Source: a virus | Taxonomy: Duplodnaviria > Heunggongvirae > Uroviricota > Caudoviricetes | Virus record (IMG/VR): IMGVR_UViG_3300045988_024436 | Coordinates: 1-22,928 of that record | Strand: one strand, 5' to 3' | Length of the DNA: 22,928 bases | Part shown: piece after piece, positions 1,334 through 16,028 of the stretch | How positions within the stretch are numbered: position 1 is the stretch's first letter | Layout: every line of letters starts with the position of its first letter | The notes under the pieces: generated by a model | What the model was told of the DNA's origin: nothing | Seen by the model: the letters and a program-made list of their open reading frames with translations, nothing else | Database searches by the model: none | Program-made: the position numbers and the translations under genes

Positions 1334-2361
1334 TTACTCGAATTCTGGACGCATATCGTTAAGCGTCATCATGAATTTTTGGTGATATTCATCACCGAGC
1401 TTTTCAGCCATGGTGTTAATCTCATTTTCAGCGCGCTTGAACATCGTTTTTGCATCTTCAGCAGATGGATCCAGGCTATTAAGTATCGCGATGATATATT
1501 CTCGAGCTTCTTCTCGTTCTGAATCTGAAATTGGCGACAGGTGTTGACGCTCATCGTCAACTACGGAATATTCACCAGTGATAACAGCTGCGTTATCTTG
1601 GCTAAGTCCAGCTTCAGCGCGCTCATCCATAACAACAGCCTTCTGCATTTCAATAGAAACAGGAAGATATTTGAATTGGTCGGCGAATTACTGTTTTTTT
1701 TAGCCATCTCATCGAAGTGATCAACCCATGGGCCACTGCTACCTGCTTTGCTCAGTGCACGAACTTTCTCAATGTCTGCCCGGCTCATAACTTCAAATTT
1801 GGACTCCGCCATCTTTCAGTCGTGCAATCGGCGTAAACGTGCGTTTAATTCTCCGCGGTCACCTGTTTCGCAAGGTAAATGCTCGAGCGTTTCTTCCAGG
1901 CCGTATGAGTAGCTGAATTTGTCGTTTGTATGTACGGTACGAGCCGAGATACTCAGGATCTGCCCAGAGCGGCGGGCAAGGTCAATCATTCCGCGATAGC
2001 CGATAATCAGCTGTGCTTCTGTAGATACGGTTTCCCATCTTCCATTTACTTTCTGGCGTTTGTCGAACGGTATCAGGTAAGCGTGTCCAAGAGCTCCGCC
2101 TGGTTCAAGACCCAATTGGGCACATTGCATAATTGCCCCCAGGAAGCTGGCTTGGTCGCATGATGCAAGTTTTGGAACCTTTCGGATCTCTGTGGTTGCT
2201 ATGCGCGCCAGACGGTCTGCTGTCATGTGCTTTGGAAGTGCCAAAGCCATCTGAGCTTTAATTTTTGGGTCTGCCAGAAGTCCGGCCAGAGTTGTTGGTT
2301 TCTCATTATGATGTGCAACTTGGTTACCGGTAGCCGCTGCCTTAAGTGCATTGATAGACAT
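1334..2361 (-). pseudogene. recT: RecT-family single-strand annealing recombinase, interrupted by an in-frame TGA and frame changes (or sequencing errors)
   Basis: Three consecutive minus-strand ORFs (1816-2361, 1561-1812, 1334-1648) each match successive parts of RecT: ALPKHMTADRLARIATTEIRKVP...QLIIGYRGMIDLARRSGQI, then FEVMSRADIEKVRALSKAGSSGPWVDHFDEMAKK, then MQKAVVMDER...TGEYSVVD. TGA at 1816-1818 is in frame between the first two. RecT-like peptides HVYA, ARLKDGG and KFEVM lie in three different frames around 1786-1845. The frame changes again at the T8 run 1694-1701. Confidence 0.65.
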
Positions 2362-2370
2362 TTTTTCTCC

Positions 2371-3270
2371 TTACTTCATTCTGAAGACGCGTTGTGTCGT
2401 TGTTGTTTTGAATTTTTCGAATAACTCAGGGTGTACTGACTGGAATAGCTTCTGGTCGAATCTGTTGCTGATCTGAGATTTCCATGTGCAGAGCGGCTTT
2501 CCGTCCAGGGTCAGGACTGAGTGCTCTTGCATGTACATCTTCAGCTTCTCTTCTGATATAGCTATTTCTTCTTCCAGTGATTTTCTGCGTGACTTCATGT
2601 CTCGTAGATCGTTGAATAGTGCGAGTGCCTTTCCGTCAGCCTCGATACTTGTCCCGGCATCTTTCTCAAACATCAGCGATACATCGCTTACGCTGGTAGC
2701 TTCCGGCGGGTTAAGATTTTTCACTCGGTCCCAGAAAGCGATTTCTTTTTCTAAGATCGCCTGGATAGTTTCTTCATCACGCTCAACCCGATAGATTCGG
2801 AAGTCGTCGCCACCGATAAGCACACCGAAAACGCATACCTGTTTGTTTGTAACCATCAACCCGTGCATGGCCTGGGCCGTGTAATGCACAGGAATTGCAT
2901 CTGTCTGGATTTCTCCCCATTCTTTGGCTTTGAACGGACTAACTGTTTTGATCTCAATGTTCTCGCCTGACGCTGCTTCTGCATCGATCTCAGCTGCAAT
3001 AAAATCGTAATCACGGTGGATATAGCGGTTTCCGCGATGAACGATTTCCATCCCTGTTTCCTCAGAAAGCAGGTCTATTACGTATGGCTCCATACGCTGG
3101 CCACGCGTGAAAACTTTCTGCTTGCTTGGGTCTACTGGTTTGACACGTGGCTGGACCTTATCCAGATAAACCTCAAGCGGGGTGCGCCATGGGCTAATTC
3201 CAAGAATCCCTGCAACATCGCTTCCTCCGATGTATTTTGTTCTATCCATGATTCCAGCGTTCTGCATCAT
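2371..3270 (-). CDS. YqaJ/RecE-type exonuclease (PD-(D/E)XK fold), recombination partner of RecT
   Basis: 299 aa; N-terminal IGGSDVAGILGISPWRTPLEVY is the YqaJ viral recombinase signature; sits directly upstream of recT on the same strand; SD GGAG before the downstream gene. Confidence 0.7.
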   Translation of the reverse strand: MMQNAGIMDRTKYIGGSDVAGILGISPWRTPLEVYLDKVQPRVKPVDPSKQKVFTRGQRMEPYVIDLLSEETGMEIVHRGNRYIHRDYDFIAAEIDAEAASGENIEIKTVSPFKAKEWGEIQTDAIPVHYTAQAMHGLMVTNKQVCVFGVLIGGDDFRIYRVERDEETIQAILEKEIAFWDRVKNLNPPEATSVSDVSLMFEKDAGTSIEADGKALALFNDLRDMKSRRKSLEEEIAISEEKLKMYMQEHSVLTLDGKPLCTWKSQISNRFDQKLFQSVHPELFEKFKTTTTQRVFRMK

Positions 3271-3530
3271 GCCGCTTCCCTCTGCCCATCAATCCGATCC
3301 GCCAGATCCCAGCGGGCGATAATTGCCATTGCCTCGCGCCGGTAGGAATCCATCAGTTCTTCGAACTCAGGGCTGTCTTTAGCAGCCTCCAGCACTTCCT
3401 GACGAACGCCTTTGCCTGTTACAACGTCGAAAGTTGAGGACAGTTGATGAAGTCGGATGCTCTCAATCAGTTCAACTTGTCGGTCATATAGCTGTTCTGA
3501 CAGGCGGTAGTCCTTGTCGAATGCCAGCAT
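3267..3530 (-). CDS. hypothetical early protein
   Basis: 87-aa track ORF; its stop overlaps the exonuclease start (ATGA at 3267-3270); no recognisable domain. Confidence 0.45.
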   Translation of the reverse strand: MLAFDKDYRLSEQLYDRQVELIESIRLHQLSSTFDVVTGKGVRQEVLEAAKDSPEFEELMDSYRREAMAIIARWDLADRIDGQREAA

Positions 3531-3570
3531 GATTTTTTTGAAGATTTTTTCTGCTGATTAACGTTCATTA

Positions 3571-3723
3571 TCAGCCCTCCCATATCTCGTTATCGTTGGC
3601 TACATCGCGAGCTTCTTTGCTGACGAAAGCCCACTTAATGCCTTCCTGTAAGGTGCGGAACTTCCAGCTCATGAATCCGCATGCAGTAACGCAGTACAAA
3701 CCGTTGATGATTTTCCACTGCAT
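3571..3723 (-). CDS. small hypothetical protein (50 aa), first ORF after the leftward promoter
   Basis: Not in track (below 60 aa). ATG at 3721-3723 with GAGG 9 nt upstream; translates MQWKIINGLYCVTACGFMSWKFRTLQEGIKWAFVSKEARDVANDNEIWEG. Confidence 0.3.
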   Translation of the reverse strand: MQWKIINGLYCVTACGFMSWKFRTLQEGIKWAFVSKEARDVANDNEIWEG

Positions 3724-3830
3724 AACTTGTTACCTCGGTCTGTTACCGTTTAGGTAATAATTATGCTTATTTGGTTTGGTGTCAATAGATATGAGTTAAA
3801 AAAATTACCCGTAAGGTAATCTATCTGGCA
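3724..3830 (-). promoter_or_regulatory. leftward early promoter/operator region (PL-like)
   Basis: Minus-strand TTGACA (plus 3780-3785), 17-bp spacer, AATTAT (plus 3757-3762). TTACC-N5-GGTAA palindromes at 3743-3757 (abutting the -10) and 3805-3819 (upstream of the -35). Confidence 0.45.
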
Positions 3831-3854
3831 ATAAAAAAGCCGCCATGAGGCGGC
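3831..3854 (-). terminator. rho-independent terminator after the repressor gene
   Basis: Stem GCCGCC, loop ATGA, stem GGCGGC (3839-3854), followed on the minus strand by TTTTTTAT (plus 3831-3838). Confidence 0.6.
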
Positions 3855-3876
3855 TTACTTACTGAAAAATATAGTT

Positions 3877-4461
3877 TTATTGTTTGCTTTTTTCGTTCTG
3901 GTTGATGACAAATTCAATGTAACTTTCGATCTTTGCTTTCTCGGTTTCGGGTAACAATGCGTAGCGTGAGCGGTCATAGTTGATAGTCGCAGGGTCGTGC
4001 GGGTGAATCAGTAGTTCATATCCGTGACGCCCGAATGCGGATGCAACATTCTCCAGGGTGGAAATGGAAACGCTGACCTCATTGTTTAACAGGCGGCTGA
4101 TTGTCACCTGGGCGACGCCGGATGCGCGGTGAAGTTTTCCCTGTGTTGAAAGGTCGCGGCTTTCGCTCATCCAGCGTTCCAGGTTGTGAGCCGCCAGCTG
4201 ACCTATATCGCTCGGGCCGACAGGCTGAAAACCCTCCTGAGAAAGCGAACGATCAATATCAAGCCAGTTACGGGGTTTATTGGCGGCAGCTTCAATTTTT
4301 CGTGCAACCTGGTCGCCGATAACCTTCTTGCCAAGAGCCCAGCGGTTTACCAGATTTGCCTGAGTTCCAAGTTTTTCTGCCATCCGCGTCTGAACACCAT
4401 TGAATTCACGGTCGATCAAGTCGTTGAGATTTTGCCTGCGGACGTCCTGGATACTTTTCAT
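3877..4461 (-). CDS. immunity repressor with two XRE-type HTH domains and no LexA-like S24 peptidase domain
   Basis: 194 aa; HTH 1 around QTRMAEKLGTQANLVNRWALGKK, HTH 2 around RASGVAQVTISRLLNNEVSVSISTLENVASAFG; divergent from a Cro-like gene; no Ala-Gly/Ser...Lys autocleavage module visible. Confidence 0.7.
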   Translation of the reverse strand: MKSIQDVRRQNLNDLIDREFNGVQTRMAEKLGTQANLVNRWALGKKVIGDQVARKIEAAANKPRNWLDIDRSLSQEGFQPVGPSDIGQLAAHNLERWMSESRDLSTQGKLHRASGVAQVTISRLLNNEVSVSISTLENVASAFGRHGYELLIHPHDPATINYDRSRYALLPETEKAKIESYIEFVINQNEKSKQ

Positions 4462-4615: not shown

Positions 4616-4846
4616 ATGAGCGATAACGGACATTTCGATTTCAAAAAGCACTGGCTTGCACTTACTCCGGATGAGCGTGAAGCCTTCGCACAGGAAGCCG
4701 GAACGACTAGTCACTATATCCAGACTCACTTAACAGGCAAGCGCAAAATGCCAGGTAAGGTATTGATGAATGGGCTTTTTAAAGCCTGTAAAACAAGACA
4801 ATGGCTGCGCTCAAAAGCAGAACTGGCATACTTCTTCTACTCATGA
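4616..4846 (+). CDS. Cro-like small HTH regulator
   Basis: 76 aa, divergent from the repressor; REAFAQEAGTTSHYIQTHLTGKRKMP reads as an HTH; followed by a terminator. Confidence 0.55.
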   Translation: MSDNGHFDFKKHWLALTPDEREAFAQEAGTTSHYIQTHLTGKRKMPGKVLMNGLFKACKTRQWLRSKAELAYFFYS

Positions 4847-4868
4847 TATCCAGCTACAACCCTCTGTA

Positions 4869-4890
4869 GACCGCCACCCGGCGGTCTTTT
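4869..4890 (+). terminator. rho-independent terminator after the cro-like gene (tR1-like position)
   Basis: GACCGCC-ACCC-GGCGGTC followed by TTTT. Confidence 0.6.
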
Positions 4891-4994: not shown

Positions 4995-5207
4995 TTGAAG
5001 ATAGTAACCAGAATGGAGGCCGCAAAAGCCGGGTTAAATCGCTATTTCACAGGAAAGCGGTGCCGTCACGGCCATCTCTCTGAAAGGTATGTTCTGAACG
5101 GAACATGTGTTGAATGTGCAATGAATAGCGCCAACCGCCATCGTAATGAATTTGCTTGTGCACTAAAGAGTGCAAGAGGGGAAACCTATGGCAAGCAGCT
5201 GGATTAA
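4995..5207 (+). CDS. small zinc-ribbon protein (CII-position gene, function unknown)
   Basis: 70 aa from TTG at 4995 (AAGGGG about 9 nt upstream), or 64 aa from ATG at 5013; CRHGH...CVEC metal-binding pattern; 3' end overlaps the replication gene start. Confidence 0.4.
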   Translation: MKIVTRMEAAKAGLNRYFTGKRCRHGHLSERYVLNGTCVECAMNSANRHRNEFACALKSARGETYGKQLD

Positions 5208-6018
5208 GGTTGAAGTTATCACTCCTGATAAACCTGAAATTTTTCAGATAGCAGAAATTCTGGGTATTGATCCAGATGCTGTTCTTGGAAAGCTGGTTCG
5301 TATATGGGCATGGGCTGACCAGCAAACAATAGACGGTAACGCTGGCAGCGTTACAAAAGGAGTACTTGATAGACTCGCTTTTATTACAGGATTTGCTGAC
5401 GCCCTCATTAGCGTCGGATGGCTTGCTTATCATGACGGCAAACTAATTCTTCCAAACTTTGAGCGACATAATGGAGAATCATCGAAAAAACGTGCACTTA
5501 CGAATAGAAGAGTGGCAGAGCATCGAAAACGAGTAACGCAAAAAGTAACGCCAACAGCGTTACAAAAGGAGTTACCAGAGGAAGAGGAAGAGGAAGATAT
5601 ATATAAAACCCCACACATAGCGCACGTGCGCGAGGGTGCTCCGACCAGTGAAGCGAACAGTACGCCGTTGCAGGTGGCAGAACCTGAATTTCTGGATGGC
5701 CTGAGTGAACCCATCGGGAAATTTCCGATGACAGATGGCTGGCTACCGTCGCCAGATTTTCGGCGGCGTGCTGCGCTGTGGGGAACGGCCCTGCCGGAAC
5801 CGGAATTTACACCTGCTGAACTTGCTGCATTCCGGGATTACTGGATGGCTGAGGGCAAAGTGTTCACGCAGGTTCAGTGGGAACAAAAATTCGCCAGGCA
5901 CGTAAATCATATCAGGGGAAAATCAAAAAATGCCGGGAAAAGCGATGAGCTTGACTGGAATAACACTGACTGGATAGAAGGGGTGTGGGATGAAATCAAC
6001 TCCAGAACTTCTCAATGA
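5188..6018 (+). CDS. replication initiation protein with DnaT-like C-terminal domain (O-like position)
   Basis: ATG at 5188 with SD AGAGGGG. C-terminus FPMTDGWLPSPDFRRRAALWGTALPEPEFTPAELAAFRDYWMAEGKVFTQVQWEQKFARHV matches recalled E. coli DnaT. Acidic linker EEEEEED. Confidence 0.7.
   Translation: MASSWIKVEVITPDKPEIFQIAEILGIDPDAVLGKLVRIWAWADQQTIDGNAGSVTKGVLDRLAFITGFADALISVGWLAYHDGKLILPNFERHNGESSKKRALTNRRVAEHRKRVTQKVTPTALQKELPEEEEEEDIYKTPHIAHVREGAPTSEANSTPLQVAEPEFLDGLSEPIGKFPMTDGWLPSPDFRRRAALWGTALPEPEFTPAELAAFRDYWMAEGKVFTQVQWEQKFARHVNHIRGKSKNAGKSDELDWNNTDWIEGVWDEINSRTSQ
5330..5612 (+). other. putative replication origin inside the initiator gene (iteron-like palindromes plus AT-rich tract)
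   Basis: GTAACGC-N5-GCGTTAC at 5336-5354 and 5545-5563, extra GTAACGC at 5533-5539, GTTAC at 5571-5575. 18-bp direct repeat CAGCGTTACAAAAGGAGT at 5346-5363 and 5555-5572. (GAGGAA)3 at 5578-5595, then ATATATATAAAA. Confidence 0.4.
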
Positions 6019-6766
6019 GTACGATCGCTTACGTGAGCATGGTGTTGCTGTGCATGAAGAGCGGCGTGACAGCAATGGCAAAAAGGAGCAGGTTGCTAGA
6101 ATTTTCAATGAACTATTTGTCCAGTTACAGGCTGCATTTCCTGCAAGCGTTTCGACCATAAGGGAGCAGAACAAACTTAATGAATTCCGTAAGCAATGGA
6201 TGCTTGCGTTTCTGGAGAATGGGATCACTACAATGGAACAGGTTAACGCTGGTATGCGCCACGCCCGCGCCAGTGAATCTCCGTTCTGGCCGTCGCCAGG
6301 GCAATTCATCAAGTGGTGCAAAGACAGCAAGATGGTTCTTGGCGTCACCATTGACGATGTGATGGCGGAGTTTCACCGGTACAGCAAGGAAAAAAGTTTA
6401 TATCCTGGTGGTCCCGAAAGATTCCCGTGGCGGCATCCGGTTATGTACTGGGTCGTATGTGATACCCGTCGTGCAATGTATCAGCGCCAGCTTAGCGAGA
6501 GTGAGGTTGAGAAACACGCGCGCAGGCTGCTCGATGATTGGGCGAAAAAGGTGGCTTCCGGACAGCAGATACCCGATCCGGTGATCAGCATACAGGCAAA
6601 GCCAGAGCCCATGAGTACACCTCCGGACACAGGGAGAGACGTTTACCATCCACCAGGGCGAAGTTTCGGGTGCATGCCTAACGCCGCCACCCTTGGGGGA
6701 ATAACACCGGCGCAGTGGCTGATGGAGGAATACAGGCGGGGAAAGGCGTCAGGATTTATCAAGTAA
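5990..6766 (+). CDS. P: lambda P-like replication protein (helicase loader)
   Basis: 258 aa; NGITTMEQVNAGMR and FWPSPGQFIKWC match the lambda P protein as recalled; start overlaps the stop of the upstream initiator gene. Confidence 0.8.
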   Translation: MKSTPELLNEYDRLREHGVAVHEERRDSNGKKEQVARIFNELFVQLQAAFPASVSTIREQNKLNEFRKQWMLAFLENGITTMEQVNAGMRHARASESPFWPSPGQFIKWCKDSKMVLGVTIDDVMAEFHRYSKEKSLYPGGPERFPWRHPVMYWVVCDTRRAMYQRQLSESEVEKHARRLLDDWAKKVASGQQIPDPVISIQAKPEPMSTPPDTGRDVYHPPGRSFGCMPNAATLGGITPAQWLMEEYRRGKASGFIK

Positions 6767-7231: not shown

Positions 7232-7335
7232 ATCGACGATCTTTTTAGTTATCAATGTAATCAATAAGTTATGTGGATAAGCGAGGGTAAAGATGGAAAG
7301 TAATATCAAAAGGGTTAGTTGCCGCCGGGCATGAG

Positions 7336-11429: not shown

Positions 11430-12908
11430 GTGACAGATACAGCGTTATCTCCTGAAGAGCAGTTAATCGAGATATTGCAGGGTTCACTCACGATCCGCTT
11501 GGCTATGCCCTCTATGGGTTCCCCGTGGGGGGGAAGGAGGGTACTGAACTGGCGACATGCCACCGGTCCACGTCAGTGGCAGGCCGATGCGTTCCGAGAG
11601 ATACGTGATCACCTGCAGAATCCAGAGACGCGATATCAGCCGCTTATGCTGGCACGTGCTTCTGGTCACGGTATTGGTAAATCCGCATTCATCTCAATGC
11701 TGATCAACTGGGGCATGTCCACTTGCGAGGATTGTAAGGTCGTGGTGACCGCCAACACCGACAACCAGCTACGAACGAAGACCTGGCCGGAAATTATCAA
11801 GTGGTCAAACCTTGCTATCACGAAAGACTGGTTTACCTGTACCGCTACCGCGATGTACAGCAATGACCCTGGGCACGACAAGCGGTGGCGAGCTGACGCA
11901 ATCCCCTGGTCTGAGCACAACACTGAGGCATTCGCCGGACTACACAACGAGCGTAAACGCATCATCGTGGTATTTGATGAAGCGTCGAACATTGCGGATC
12001 TGGTGTGGGAAGTTGCCGAGGGTGCGCTAACGGACGAAGACACTGAGATTATCTGGGTGGCTTTCGGAAACCCTACACGTAACACCGGGCGTTTCCGTGA
12101 ATGTTTCCGCAAATACAAACACCGCTGGAAAACTGCGCAGATTGACAGCAGGACGGTGGAAGGCACCAACAAACAGCAGTTGCAGAAATGGGTTGATGAC
12201 TACGGGGAAGATAGCGACTTCGTTAAAATCCGTGTGCGTGGCATATTCCCTGATGCATCTGAATTGCAGTTTATCCCTACCGGTCTTACTGACGAGGCAA
12301 TGAAACGGGTGGTAACTGCTGCGCAGGTGGCACATGCTCCGGTGATAATCGGCGTTGACCCGGCATACTCCGGCGTTGATGACGCTGTGATATACCTGCG
12401 GCAGGGGCTACACAGTAAGGTGCTGTGGACTGGCAACAAGACTACCGACGATCTGATTATGGCGAAGCGTATCGCTGACTTTGAAGACCAGTATCAGGCT
12501 GACGCGGTGTTCATCGACTTCGGTTACGGAACCGGTTTGAAGTCAATCGGTGACGGCTGGGGTCGTACATGGCAACTTGTTCCGTTCGGTGGCGCGTCTA
12601 CTGACCAGCAGATGCTCAACAAGCGTGGGGAGATGTTCAACTCATGCAAGACATGGCTGAGGCTGGGCGGCATGCTTGATGACCAGGAAACAGCGGACGA
12701 CCTGTCGGCGGCAGAGTACAAAGTTCGAGTGGACGGTAAAATCGTTATCGAACCGAAGGAAGATATCAAGGAGCGGCTTGGGCGTTCTCCTGGTAAAGGC
12801 GATGCGCTACTGCTGACGTTTGCGTTCCCGGTGTCAAAGCGCCTGCGAATTCCCGGGCAGCAGAACCAGCAAGGCAAGGCCATTACAGATTACGATCCCT
12901 ATGCTTAA
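11430..12908 (+). CDS. terminase large subunit
   Basis: 492 aa; ATPase-like N-terminal half and nuclease-like C-terminal half ([11 protein letters not shown]...DAV); GTG start overlaps the upstream stop. Confidence 0.8.
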
Positions 12909-13582: not shown

Positions 13583-13626
13583 AAGCCCCTGGAACTTCTG
13601 GCATCACGGTCCTTAGGCGTGATTCT

Positions 13627-13702
13627 GGCGTGGCATGCAGGATTCGAACCTGCGACCAACCGCTTAGAAGGCGGTTGCTCTGTCCAGCTGAGCTAATGCC
13701 AC
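13627..13702 (-). tRNA. tRNA-Arg (anticodon UCU)
   Basis: Reverse complement GTGGCATTAGCTCAGCTGGACAGAGCAACCGCCTTCTAAGCGGTTGGTCGCAGGTTCGAATCCTGCATGCCACGCCA folds as a cloverleaf: 7-bp acceptor stem, anticodon loop CTTCTAA, T-loop TTCGAAT, encoded CCA. Close to E. coli argU as recalled. Confidence 0.9.
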
Positions 13703-14350: not shown

Positions 14351-16028
14351 ATGGCGGAAACAACTAAAGAGCGATTGAACAAACAGTTCGCACAACTTGA
14401 AAGCGAGCGTCAGTCGTTCGAGCCGCACTGGCGCGAGTTGAGTGATTACATCAACCCGCGTGGTTCCCGCTTTCTGACTTCTGAGGTTAACCGTAACGAT
14501 CGACGCAATACACGCATTATTGATTCGACCGGGACTATGGCGGCGCGCACTCTCGCCAGCGGCATGATGTCAGGCATCACAGCCCCGCGCGTCCGTGGTT
14601 TCGCCTGGCTAGCCAGATCCTGAAATGATGGATTATGGCCCTGTTAAGTTGTGGCTTGAGGCGGTGCAGAACCGCATGAACGATATGTTCAATAAGTCGA
14701 ATCTCTATCAGTCGCTGCCGCAGTTATACGGAAGCCTCGGCACATACAGCACTGGTGCAATGGCAGTGCTGGAGGATGACGAGGACATCATTCGCACAAT
14801 GCCATTCCCGATAGGCAGTTACTACCTGGCTAACTCACCTCGTGGCAGTGTGGACACCTGTTTTCGCAAGTTCTCTATGACTGTTCGTCAGCTTGTTCAG
14901 GAGTTCGGGCTAAATAACGTCAGCGAATCCGTAAAAAGCATGTGGGAAAGCGGAACCTACGAGAAGTGGATTGAAGTGATGCATTCGGTTTACCCGAACA
15001 TTGACCGCGATACATCGAAGCTGGATAGCAAGAACAAGCCATTCAAATCGGTTTATTACGAGGTTGGTGGCGATAACGACAAGTTGTTGCGTGAGTCCGG
15101 ATTCGATGAGTTTCCAATTATGGCTCCGCGCTGGGAAGTTAACGGCGAAGATGTTTATGGATCATCATGCCCGGGTATGCTGGCGCTTGGACCTGTTAAG
15201 GCATTGCAGCTTCTCCAGAAGCGCAAGTCGCAGTTGATTGATAAAGCCACCAATCCGCCGATGGTTGCTCCGACTTCCCTCAAGAATCAGCGTGCCTCCC
15301 TTCTTCCTGGCGACATCACGTATATCGATCAGATTACTGGTCAGGATGGTTTCAGGCCTGCTTATCTGGTTAACCCCAGTACAGCAGATTTGGTGGCAGA
15401 CATTCAGGACACCCGTCAAATCATTAACAGCGCCTACTTTGTCGATCTGTTCATGATGTTGCAGAACATCAATACCCGCTCGATGCCTGTTGAAGCGGTG
15501 ATCGAAATGAAAGAAGAAAAACTTCTGATGTTGGGGCCGGTTCTGGAGCGTCTGAACGACGAATGTCTTAATCCTCTCATTGACCGCGCTTTCTCGATGA
15601 TGGTGCGTAAAAACATGCTGCCGCCACCGCCTGACGCGATGGAAGGTATGCCCCTGAAGGTCGAATACATTTCCGTCATGGCTCAGGCGCAGAAGTCTAT
15701 CGGCCTGTCCAGTCTGGCGTCTACGGTCAACTTCATTGGTCAACTTGCGCAAGCGAAACCAGAAGCTCTCGACAAACTCAACGTTGATCAGGCGATCGAT
15801 GCATTCGCTGATATGTCCGGAGTGTCTCCAACCGTCATTGTTCCGCAGGAACAGGTTGAGCAGGCTCGCCAGCAACGGGCACAGCAACAACAGCAGCAAC
15901 AAATGATGGCGATGGGGATGGCGGCGGCACAGGGTGCCAAGACGCTAAGCGAAGCTAAAACTTCGGATCCGAGTGTTTTGTCAGCTATGGCGAATGCAGT
16001 TAGTGGTCAGGGTGGGCAATCACAATGA
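14351..16028 (+). pseudogene. portal (head-to-tail connector) protein, apparently split by two nearby frame changes (or sequencing errors)
   Basis: ORFs 14351-14623 (90 aa) and 14625-16028 (467 aa) are in different frames. The third frame across the junction encodes SPARPWFRLA (14581-14610), which resembles the P-x3-W-x-RL stretch of T7 gp8; a C4 run lies at 14583-14586. Poly-Q near the C-terminus. Confidence 0.65.

Follow-up and report, generated by a model that had tools for sequence, protein, structure and literature searches.

In the origins of iteron plasmids, such as those that depend on RepA, TrfA or pi, repeats bound by the initiator lie beside an unwinding element. The initiator gene is adjacent to these sites or overlaps them, and plasmids of this type are known to use inverted repeats for autoregulation. 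In phage lambda, the origin elements are situated within the open reading frame (ORF) of the initiator O, at the inter-domain linker, where four iterons (nt 349–433 of O in the annotated record) precede an AT-rich tract that includes an 18-nt purine run (AAAAGAAAAAAGAAAAGA). The lambda iterons are 19-bp imperfect inverted repeats, two of which, together with the AT-rich tract, are enough for unwinding (PMC7466680). Here, we analysed a 22,928-nt stretch of viral DNA (IMG/VR record IMGVR_UViG_3300045988_024436, positions 1 to 22,928; the whole stretch is hereafter called the window), in which palindromes of the form GTAACGC-N5-GCGTTAC lie inside the gene of a 276-aa replication initiator (5188–6018, plus strand). 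The region is probably the lambda-like replication origin of this phage, embedded in the initiator gene and read by the N-terminal domain (N-domain) of the initiator; both the binding of the initiator and the origin activity are what we infer from comparing sequences.

A preliminary description of this DNA had likened the locus to the lambda origin, and the likeness holds for the position at the linker and for the geometry of the purine-rich and AT-rich tract, the main array of half-sites occupying nt 346–388 of the gene and a 21-nt purine run nt 390–410. In both systems, the inverted repeats measure 18–19 bp (TCCCTC-N6-GAGGGA in lambda, GTAACGC-N5-GCGTTAC in the window), a P-like helicase loader is encoded downstream (relatives with the same N-domain use a DnaC-like protein or DnaB), and the N-domain and the origin form an exchangeable specificity module. 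The likeness does not extend to the protein, which is no O homologue, nor to the layout of the sites, the units being palindromic half-site arrays instead of tandem iterons. Whereas lambda, the six-iteron Stx phages included, has four to six tandem iterons within approximately 85–130 bp, here a palindrome is flanked by single half-sites at a 12-bp pitch and accompanied by one to three distal palindromes approximately 200 bp apart. Moreover, the DNA-binding domain itself has one of the sites within its coding sequence, and the AT tract spans approximately 15 bp, compared with approximately 40 bp in lambda. Unlike iteron plasmids, the locus has no tandem 17–22-bp direct repeats and no DnaA boxes nearby, and its sites are palindromic and inside an ORF.

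The initiator comprises the N-domain (aa 1 to approximately 115), which belongs to no Pfam family even at E = 1, an acidic linker, and a DnaT-like C-terminal domain (C-domain; aa 179–249, nt 5722–5934), and in both end domains it thereby differs from O. It matches PHROG 2509 ("replication initiation protein") with E = 9e-130 at full length and E = 2e-76 for the N-domain alone, and 11 of 11 diverse N-domains matched both PHROG 2509 and PHROG 9474. The C-domain matches Pfam DnaT (PF17948) over aa 179–249 with 66.6 bits and is homologous, over aa 165–252, to the DnaT C-terminal domain in PDB entries 6aep (E = 1.5e-20), 4ou6 and 9zbt (E = 1e-19 to 1e-20), a domain that binds single-stranded DNA (ssDNA) (PMC4129139). 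The initiator therefore shares with E. coli DnaT (primosomal protein I) a homologous C-terminal ssDNA-binding domain, but the PriB-binding N-domain of DnaT is replaced by a predicted sequence-specific double-stranded-DNA-binding domain.

Closer affiliations were considered and rejected. The protein is not DnaT proper, as it reaches 92.4 bits with the NF002770 equivalog against a cut-off of 201 and matches only positions 81–161 of 179. It is not a lambda O homologue either, Pfam finding DnaT in the C-domain alone and the PHROG families being 2509 and 9474. Nor is it of the YdaU/DUF1376 type, since its N-domain has no Pfam match and the N-terminal sequence of K-12 YdaU differs. Gene 15 of phi80, considered as a possible relative, was not among the C-domain homologues.

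Two palindromic sites lie inside the initiator gene

Site 1, the distal palindrome GTAACGC-TGGCA-GCGTTAC (5336–5354), is located inside the coding sequence of the N-domain, where it encodes G-N-A-G-S-V-T. Site 2, the core array, spans 5533–5575 and consists of four 7-bp half-sites at a 12-bp pitch, two rightward (GTAACGC at 5533 and 5545) and two leftward (GCGTTAC at 5557 and GAGTTAC at 5569). Its inner half-sites form the palindrome GTAACGC-CAACA-GCGTTAC (5545–5563), with site 1 lying 209 bp upstream. Both palindromes, the additional GTAACGC half-site at 5533–5539 and the 18-bp direct repeat CAGCGTTACAAAAGGAGT (5346–5363 and 5555–5572) had been recognized in the preliminary description and are present at these coordinates; the fourth half-site (GAGTTAC, 5569–5575) was found when one mismatch was allowed, and a repeat finder extended the direct repeat to 28 nt, of which 25 are identical (5336–5363 versus 5545–5572). 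Only the second cluster belongs to the linker, the first palindrome falling within the N-domain coding sequence.

The full palindrome occurs twice in the window against 0.05 occurrences expected, and none of 100 shuffled sequences reached two. The 7-mer GTAACGC occurs 10 times against 2.1 expected, and five of the 10 copies fall within 5336–5563. Furthermore, the two palindromes are read in different frames of the ORF 5188–6018 (GNAGSVT and VTPTALQ) and therefore do not represent a peptide repeat.

The palindromes are conserved as DNA

More than 200 homologous loci were collected, 12 from annotated phages, 80 from IMG/VR (N-domains 58–100% identical) and 122 from the diverged epsilon15-like and Raharianne-like branches; a protein search of a large database returned mostly truncated, close relatives. 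The set with GTAACGC sites, termed the GTAACGC clade, comprised 89 genes with 69 unique N-domain sequences, whose pairwise nucleotide identity ranged from 48 to 99% (median 71%). The preliminary description had looked to homologous initiator genes for the presence or absence of the repeats. Every full-length homologue in the GTAACGC clade carries them at the same gene positions (nt 149 or 161 for one palindrome, nt 344–392 for the other), and the diverged clades have clade-specific equivalents. The palindrome arms are essentially invariant within the clade, but the 5-nt spacers between them exist in more than 20 versions, as would be expected of a site bound by a dimeric protein. In Rac-like relatives, a third palindrome is located 31–43 nt upstream of the ATG codon, and a few have a fourth. 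Among the 69 unique contexts, a forward half-site precedes palindrome 2 by 12 bp in 51%, and an extra reverse half-site follows at +24 in 36% and at +35 in 55%, adding up in some relatives to three forward and three reverse half-sites. Direct half-site repeats at a 12-bp pitch are unable to form hairpins and thus fit protein binding.

These patterns make it very improbable that the element acts as RNA, either as messenger RNA hairpins that affect stability or translation or as intrinsic terminators on the minus strand. The sequence of each palindrome does permit a 7-bp stem closed by a 5-nt loop, and in a simple scan both were classed as terminator-like on the minus strand, where TTTTT follows the second. 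However, the invariant arms show no G-U or compensatory drift within the clade, the conserved direct half-sites cannot pair, and the minus-strand T-run is missing at site 1 and in the Ralstonia and Pseudomonas relatives.

Codon usage at the two sites separates selection on DNA from selection on protein. In the 69 unique N-domain genes, the arm codons of site 1 are GGT in 67 of 68, AAC in 69 of 69, AGC in 51 of 51 and GTT in 69 of 69 cases. These four codons are the lowest-entropy columns among 77 degenerate conserved columns, with a normalised codon entropy of 0.014 versus 0.77 for the 73 others (permutation p < 1e-5). Genes in which another residue replaces Ser54 nearly always retain xGC in the codon (GGC in 16 genes, CGC in one; one gene has ACC). 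Site 2 encodes [GS]NAxSVT, in the same frame as site 1, in 41 distinct contexts and is read in another frame, as VTxxALQ, in 22 contexts that include the window, with the DNA intact; as the frame differs between clades with the DNA kept, it is the DNA, not the protein, that is conserved. The last half-site is read as GCG-TTA-CC (A-L-P), and even the GC-rich Pseudomonas and Ralstonia phages retain TTA, a rare codon for Leu.

Most relatives encode [GS]NAxSVT at both copies in one frame, as they would if the repeats were a by-product of a peptide motif GNAxSVT; this explanation, like chance or recent duplication without any role at the DNA level, is nevertheless hardly credible. Copy 2 is in another frame in the clade of the window, the synonymous arm positions are frozen and amino-acid replacements spare xGC, the third copy of the relatives lies in non-coding DNA, and the chance expectation is the 0.05 given above. 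That the palindromes are cis-acting DNA elements under selection is essentially certain. Between the two sites, the codons S103-K104-K105-R106 at 5494–5505 (TCGAAAAAACGT, within the coding sequence of the helix discussed below) also display unusually low synonymous variation across the 69 genes (normalised entropy 0.11–0.48), and a further DNA-level constraint may act there.

Site classes track three residues of a basic helix

In diverged clades, the linker carries palindromes with other arms: GTCCGC-N7-GCGGAC in the epsilon15 clade, GTAGACG-N6-CGTCTAC in the Raharianne clade, and GTGGCGC-N5-GCGCCAC or GTTGCGC-N5-GCGCAAC in others. Distal copies are found at clade-dependent positions (−57, 66, 129, 149 and 154, with nt 66 in the epsilon15 clade and nt 154 in the Raharianne clade), and the class of the distal copy is always that of the linker copy.

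To relate site class to protein, 132 unique N-domains were classed by their linker site and approximately 115 alignment columns were compared. Columns 101, 105 and 109 alone distinguished the GTAACGC and GTCCGC classes in both of two independent comparisons, one of 6 versus 6 sequences within a single subclade, whose helices are otherwise near-identical, and one of 49 versus 46 that comprised all the remaining sequences. The three residues are spaced i, i+4 and i+8, on one face of a basic helix with the pattern HNGxSAK-x-RA-x-T-x-x-R-V. Residue 101 is not R, 105 is T and 109 is V in the GTAACGC class, and the corresponding residues are R, D or E, and K in the GTCCGC class; a variable residue, K and Q in the GTAGACG class; and V or T, R or K, and M in the GTGGCGC class. 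In the window, this putative DNA-recognition helix (aa 96–112, GESSKKRALTNRRVAEH) is encoded at 5473–5523 on the plus strand, with the class-tracking codons at 5488–5490 (K101), 5500–5502 (T105) and 5512–5514 (V109). An AlphaFold (AF2) model places a helix at aa 96–119, and K100, R102 and R108 are invariant. These observations make it likely that the N-domain binds the sites.

A more far-reaching reading, which we advance tentatively and hold to be rather doubtful, is that the N-domain represents a separate class of origin-binding module, in which one basic helix reads 7-bp half-sites by a three-residue code at positions 101, 105 and 109, the origin being a long-range complex of sites spaced by approximately 200 bp. 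The code would then run from non-R/T/V to GTAACGC, from R/[DE]/K to GTCCGC, from x/K/Q to GTAGACG and from [VT]/[RK]/M to GTGGCGC, and, with one site written in the codons of the binding domain, protein and site would be forced to co-evolve.

The N-domain and its sites occur together and move together

The neighbours of the initiator gene differ among relatives, which have various repressor types, a KilA-C antirepressor or a cytosine methylase upstream, and a loader that is P-like, DnaC-like or DnaB; among all these, the N-domain alone is constant. Among the sampled viral contigs that have the exact 19-mer pattern, 68 of 80 (85%) encode an N-domain homologue at most 800 nt away, including all 31 that carry at least two palindrome copies. 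In cellular genomes, the pairs found 204–228 bp apart (in Photobacterium, Pirellulaceae and Phycisphaerales) are all accompanied by the N-domain; 111 of the 114 hits in the cellular scan lack it, single hits there being mostly chance and only pairs informative. In this initiator family, the palindromes and the N-terminal domain are inseparable.

Recognition by a conserved host protein or another phage protein instead of the initiator, for example in packaging, partition or recombination, appears improbable, though less so than an action as RNA. It could draw on the finding that the 19-mer is also repeated, at dispersed places, in metagenome-assembled genomes (MAGs) of some unrelated bacteria. 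Against it stand the co-occurrence in viral contigs just described, the three helix residues that track the site class, and the range of hosts (Enterobacteria, Pseudomonas, Ralstonia, Xanthomonas, Photobacterium and Planctomycetota), across which neighbours vary and the N-domain does not. The MAGs in question are three of Vulcanimicrobiota, with GTAACGC-N5-GCGTTAC on at least 17 contigs, and one of Synergistia, with the pattern on four; no N-domain is encoded nearby, and in these genomes the 19-mer is either a dispersed repeat or a regulon site, without relation to the phage locus.

In the window, identity profiles and BLAST pieces, which start or end there, located a mosaic joint at 5608–5612, where the module of N-domain plus origin meets that of the C-domain. 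At this joint, identity to BUCT554, Klebsiella phi3.2 and Rac 442/2 falls, and identity to Rac-SA53 rises. The joint, at approximately 5608, directly follows the AT tract on its 3' side, so that the N-domain, the sites and the candidate unwinding tract move as one recombination unit.

A plasmid collection contained two carriers of the locus, neither informative on autonomy. One entry of plasmid type, CP088505.1 (E. coli "plasmid" pE16EC1016-8), is a 52-kb circular sequence of no replicon type that encodes an initiator with a 95% identical N-domain in the same repressor/cro-like neighbourhood as the window; it represents a phage-plasmid or else the genome of a phage that was assembled as a plasmid.

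A purine run and an AT tract adjoin the core array

The (GAGGAA)3 repeat (5578–5595) and the ATATATATAAAA tract (5597–5608) previously noted after the sites are both present. The former is part of a 21-nt homopurine run on the plus strand (AGAGGAAGAGGAAGAGGAAGA, 5577–5597), which encodes the EEEEEE linker and is a candidate for the first-melted strand or for an ssDNA-binding tract. Only two purine or pyrimidine runs of at least 18 nt exist in the 22.9-kb window, the other being an 18-nt homopyrimidine run (CCCTTTTTTCTCTCTTTC) at 795–812. The adjacent AT tract (AAGATATATATAAAA, 5594–5608), a candidate DNA-unwinding element, is the least stable 15-mer of the gene by nearest-neighbour free energy (z = 3.15) and belongs to the top 0.01% of the window. 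In the homologues, a purine run of at least 12 nt follows site 2 in 61 of 69 contexts (median 21 nt), and the 15 nt 3' of the run have a median A+T content of 80%. In the epsilon15 and Raharianne clades, the corresponding position is occupied by (AGAGA)n. Just past the AT tract, a perfect palindrome (GCGCACGTGCGC) occupies 5620–5631; it was considered as an analogue of the palindrome of the lambda origin and rejected, because relatives do not conserve it and its position is past the module joint. Another perfect palindrome (CATCGGGAAATTTCCGATG) is found at 5712–5730, in the coding sequence of the C-domain.

Several observations weigh against the region being an origin read by the N-domain. The AT-rich tract claimed in the preliminary description exists but is short, at approximately 13–15 bp, and, measured over 40 bp, the region is only just the least stable of the gene and is ordinary within the window. 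Encoding the charged linker could be the sole role of the purine run. No DnaA box was found near the candidate origin. The distances between sites in the different homologues (195, 198, 207, 209, 216, 219, 231, 243, 279 and 288 bp) show no helical phasing, and such variable, unphased spacing leaves a looping model unsupported. The helix codons lie 10–60 bp from the linker site, so that linkage could contribute to the co-variation; the periodic three-residue pattern, in place of a block of differences, argues for direct readout. Finally, no mapped origin for any phage of the family was found in the searchable literature. The sole perfect DnaA box of the window (TTATCCACA, 7272–7280, minus strand) is situated 1.7 kb downstream of the candidate origin.

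Initiators with other N-domains carry their own linker repeats

The initiators of phiV10 and PPompW belong to the same Uetakevirus group and DnaT-like C-domain family, and likewise have linker repeats followed by the C-domain; in contrast to the window, their N-domain is unrelated and their repeats are tandem direct iterons rather than palindromes. In phiV10 (gene 949–1776), the linker at nt 263–445 contains two full 24-nt units of CCCAAAAACGGGATGTTGAATGAT, the core CCAAAAACGGGA at four positions, and three copies of AACCAGTCATAT; these repeats are a candidate origin for which the record has no annotation. Other N-domain types on the same C-domain family also have linker repeats of their own, ACACCCAAAAACGG in PPompW, GTTCAAACA in YdaU of K-12 and GATCAGG in Tyrion.

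The Rac prophage gene ydaU, associated with oriJ, occupies the same gene position in a lambdoid early operon. Some Rac variants (strain 442/2 and phage 673R7) have exactly the N-domain type of the window and three GTAACGC palindromes, but YdaU of K-12, which is the reference for oriJ, lacks GTAACGC and has a DUF1376 N-domain that is unrelated. Because the K-12 N-domain is different, the oriJ literature is not applicable to the window. In K-12 Rac ydaU (3120–3977), GTTCAAACA occurs three times in the linker, at gene nt 393–458, with two direct copies and one inverted, and these copies may be the sites that are bound at the classical oriJ. The searchable literature yielded no description of oriJ at the sequence level, and the "oriJ" primers of De Paepe 2014 were discarded as an origin marker, as they lie in K-12 ydaV and locate no origin.

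These comparisons bear on the most serious rival to an origin, namely that the palindromes are operators only, where the initiator or another protein would repress or roadblock transcription or translation of the replication operon for copy control, with replication starting elsewhere. We consider this unlikely. Palindromes of 19 bp are typical for dimeric repressors, the extra copy 31–43 nt upstream of the initiator ATG in Rac-like relatives is at a typical operator position, and intragenic sites could act by a roadblock. However, no palindrome copy lies upstream of the initiator gene in the window, the most conserved cluster adjoins the conserved purine/AT tract at the position of the lambda origin, and other N-domain types have classic tandem iterons at the same place. 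Moreover, autoregulation and origin function are compatible, as lambda and plasmid initiators do both.

The initiator gene lies in a lambdoid early region

The window derives from an epsilon15/phiV10-like (Uetakevirus-type) temperate phage. It shares 99.7% identity over 2.4 kb with Escherichia phage vB_EcoP_ZX5 and 98% with TL-2011b, and the initiator gene was found in 322 of 5426 complete E. coli genomes. Upstream of the initiator gene are genes for a helix-turn-helix (HTH) repressor (3877–4461, minus strand) and a cro-like protein (4616–4846), and a small PHROG-1081 gene (4995–5207). Between the cro-like ORF and the replication genes, a strong terminator-like hairpin (AGACCGCCACCCGGCGGTCT, 4868–4887, plus strand) with a T-rich tail has a placement reminiscent of lambda tR1. 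Downstream, the gene of the lambda-P-like helicase loader (5990–6766, plus strand; PF06992, E = 5e-56; PHROG 109, "P-like helicase loader") starts within the end of the initiator gene, at 5990 versus 6018, and is followed by a DUF1064 nuclease-like gene. The terminase, portal-like, protease, capsid and tail genes lie downstream of the replication genes, with the large terminase gene at 11430–12908 and the portal-like gene at 14625–16028; a tRNA-Arg gene (anticodon TCT, 13626–13702, minus strand) is situated between these two. A RecT-like ORF of 181 aa (1816–2361, minus strand) matches only positions 2–98 of 198 of Pfam RecT and may be split or truncated; it adjoins a gene for a RecE/YqaJ-like exonuclease (2371–3270).

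Proposed mechanism and significance

According to the mechanism that we propose, dimers of the N-domain would read the GTAACGC half-sites through the basic alpha-helix of aa 96–112, with K100, R102 and R108 as constant contacts and residues 101, 105 and 109 setting the base preference at half-site positions 3–4. The dimers would occupy the array at 5533–5575 and the distal palindrome at 5336–5354, probably with cooperative looping or wrapping comparable to the lambda O-some. Occupied sites would then strain the 21-nt purine run and the 13–15-bp AT tract (5577–5608) until the DNA melts, upon which the DnaT-like C-domain may hold the opened strand, contact the lambda-P-like loader (5990–6766), or do both. 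The loader, in turn, would bring the host DnaB helicase.

No description of this origin type was found in the searchable literature, subscription journals being a possible exception, or in the epsilon15 and phiV10 annotations that were fetched. The analysis provides a testable origin and initiator-site assignment for a widespread, uncharacterised family of phage initiators that spans epsilon15-, phiV10- and TL-2011b-like phages, many Rac-like prophages, and phages of Pseudomonas, Ralstonia and Xanthomonas. It also yields a candidate three-residue recognition code that can be checked by simple mutagenesis. Should the doubtful reading of the N-domain as a separate class of origin-binding module be true, origin specificity would be predictable from sequence and re-programmable across a phage family that extends from Enterobacteria to Planctomycetota. 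The assignment may serve to predict replication incompatibility or cross-activation of co-resident prophages, to build minimal phage replicons and to annotate origins automatically. For the family as a whole, it would extend the lambda principle, in which an origin located in the initiator gene is swapped along with the DNA-binding domain, to an initiator that is unrelated to O and has its sites arranged differently.

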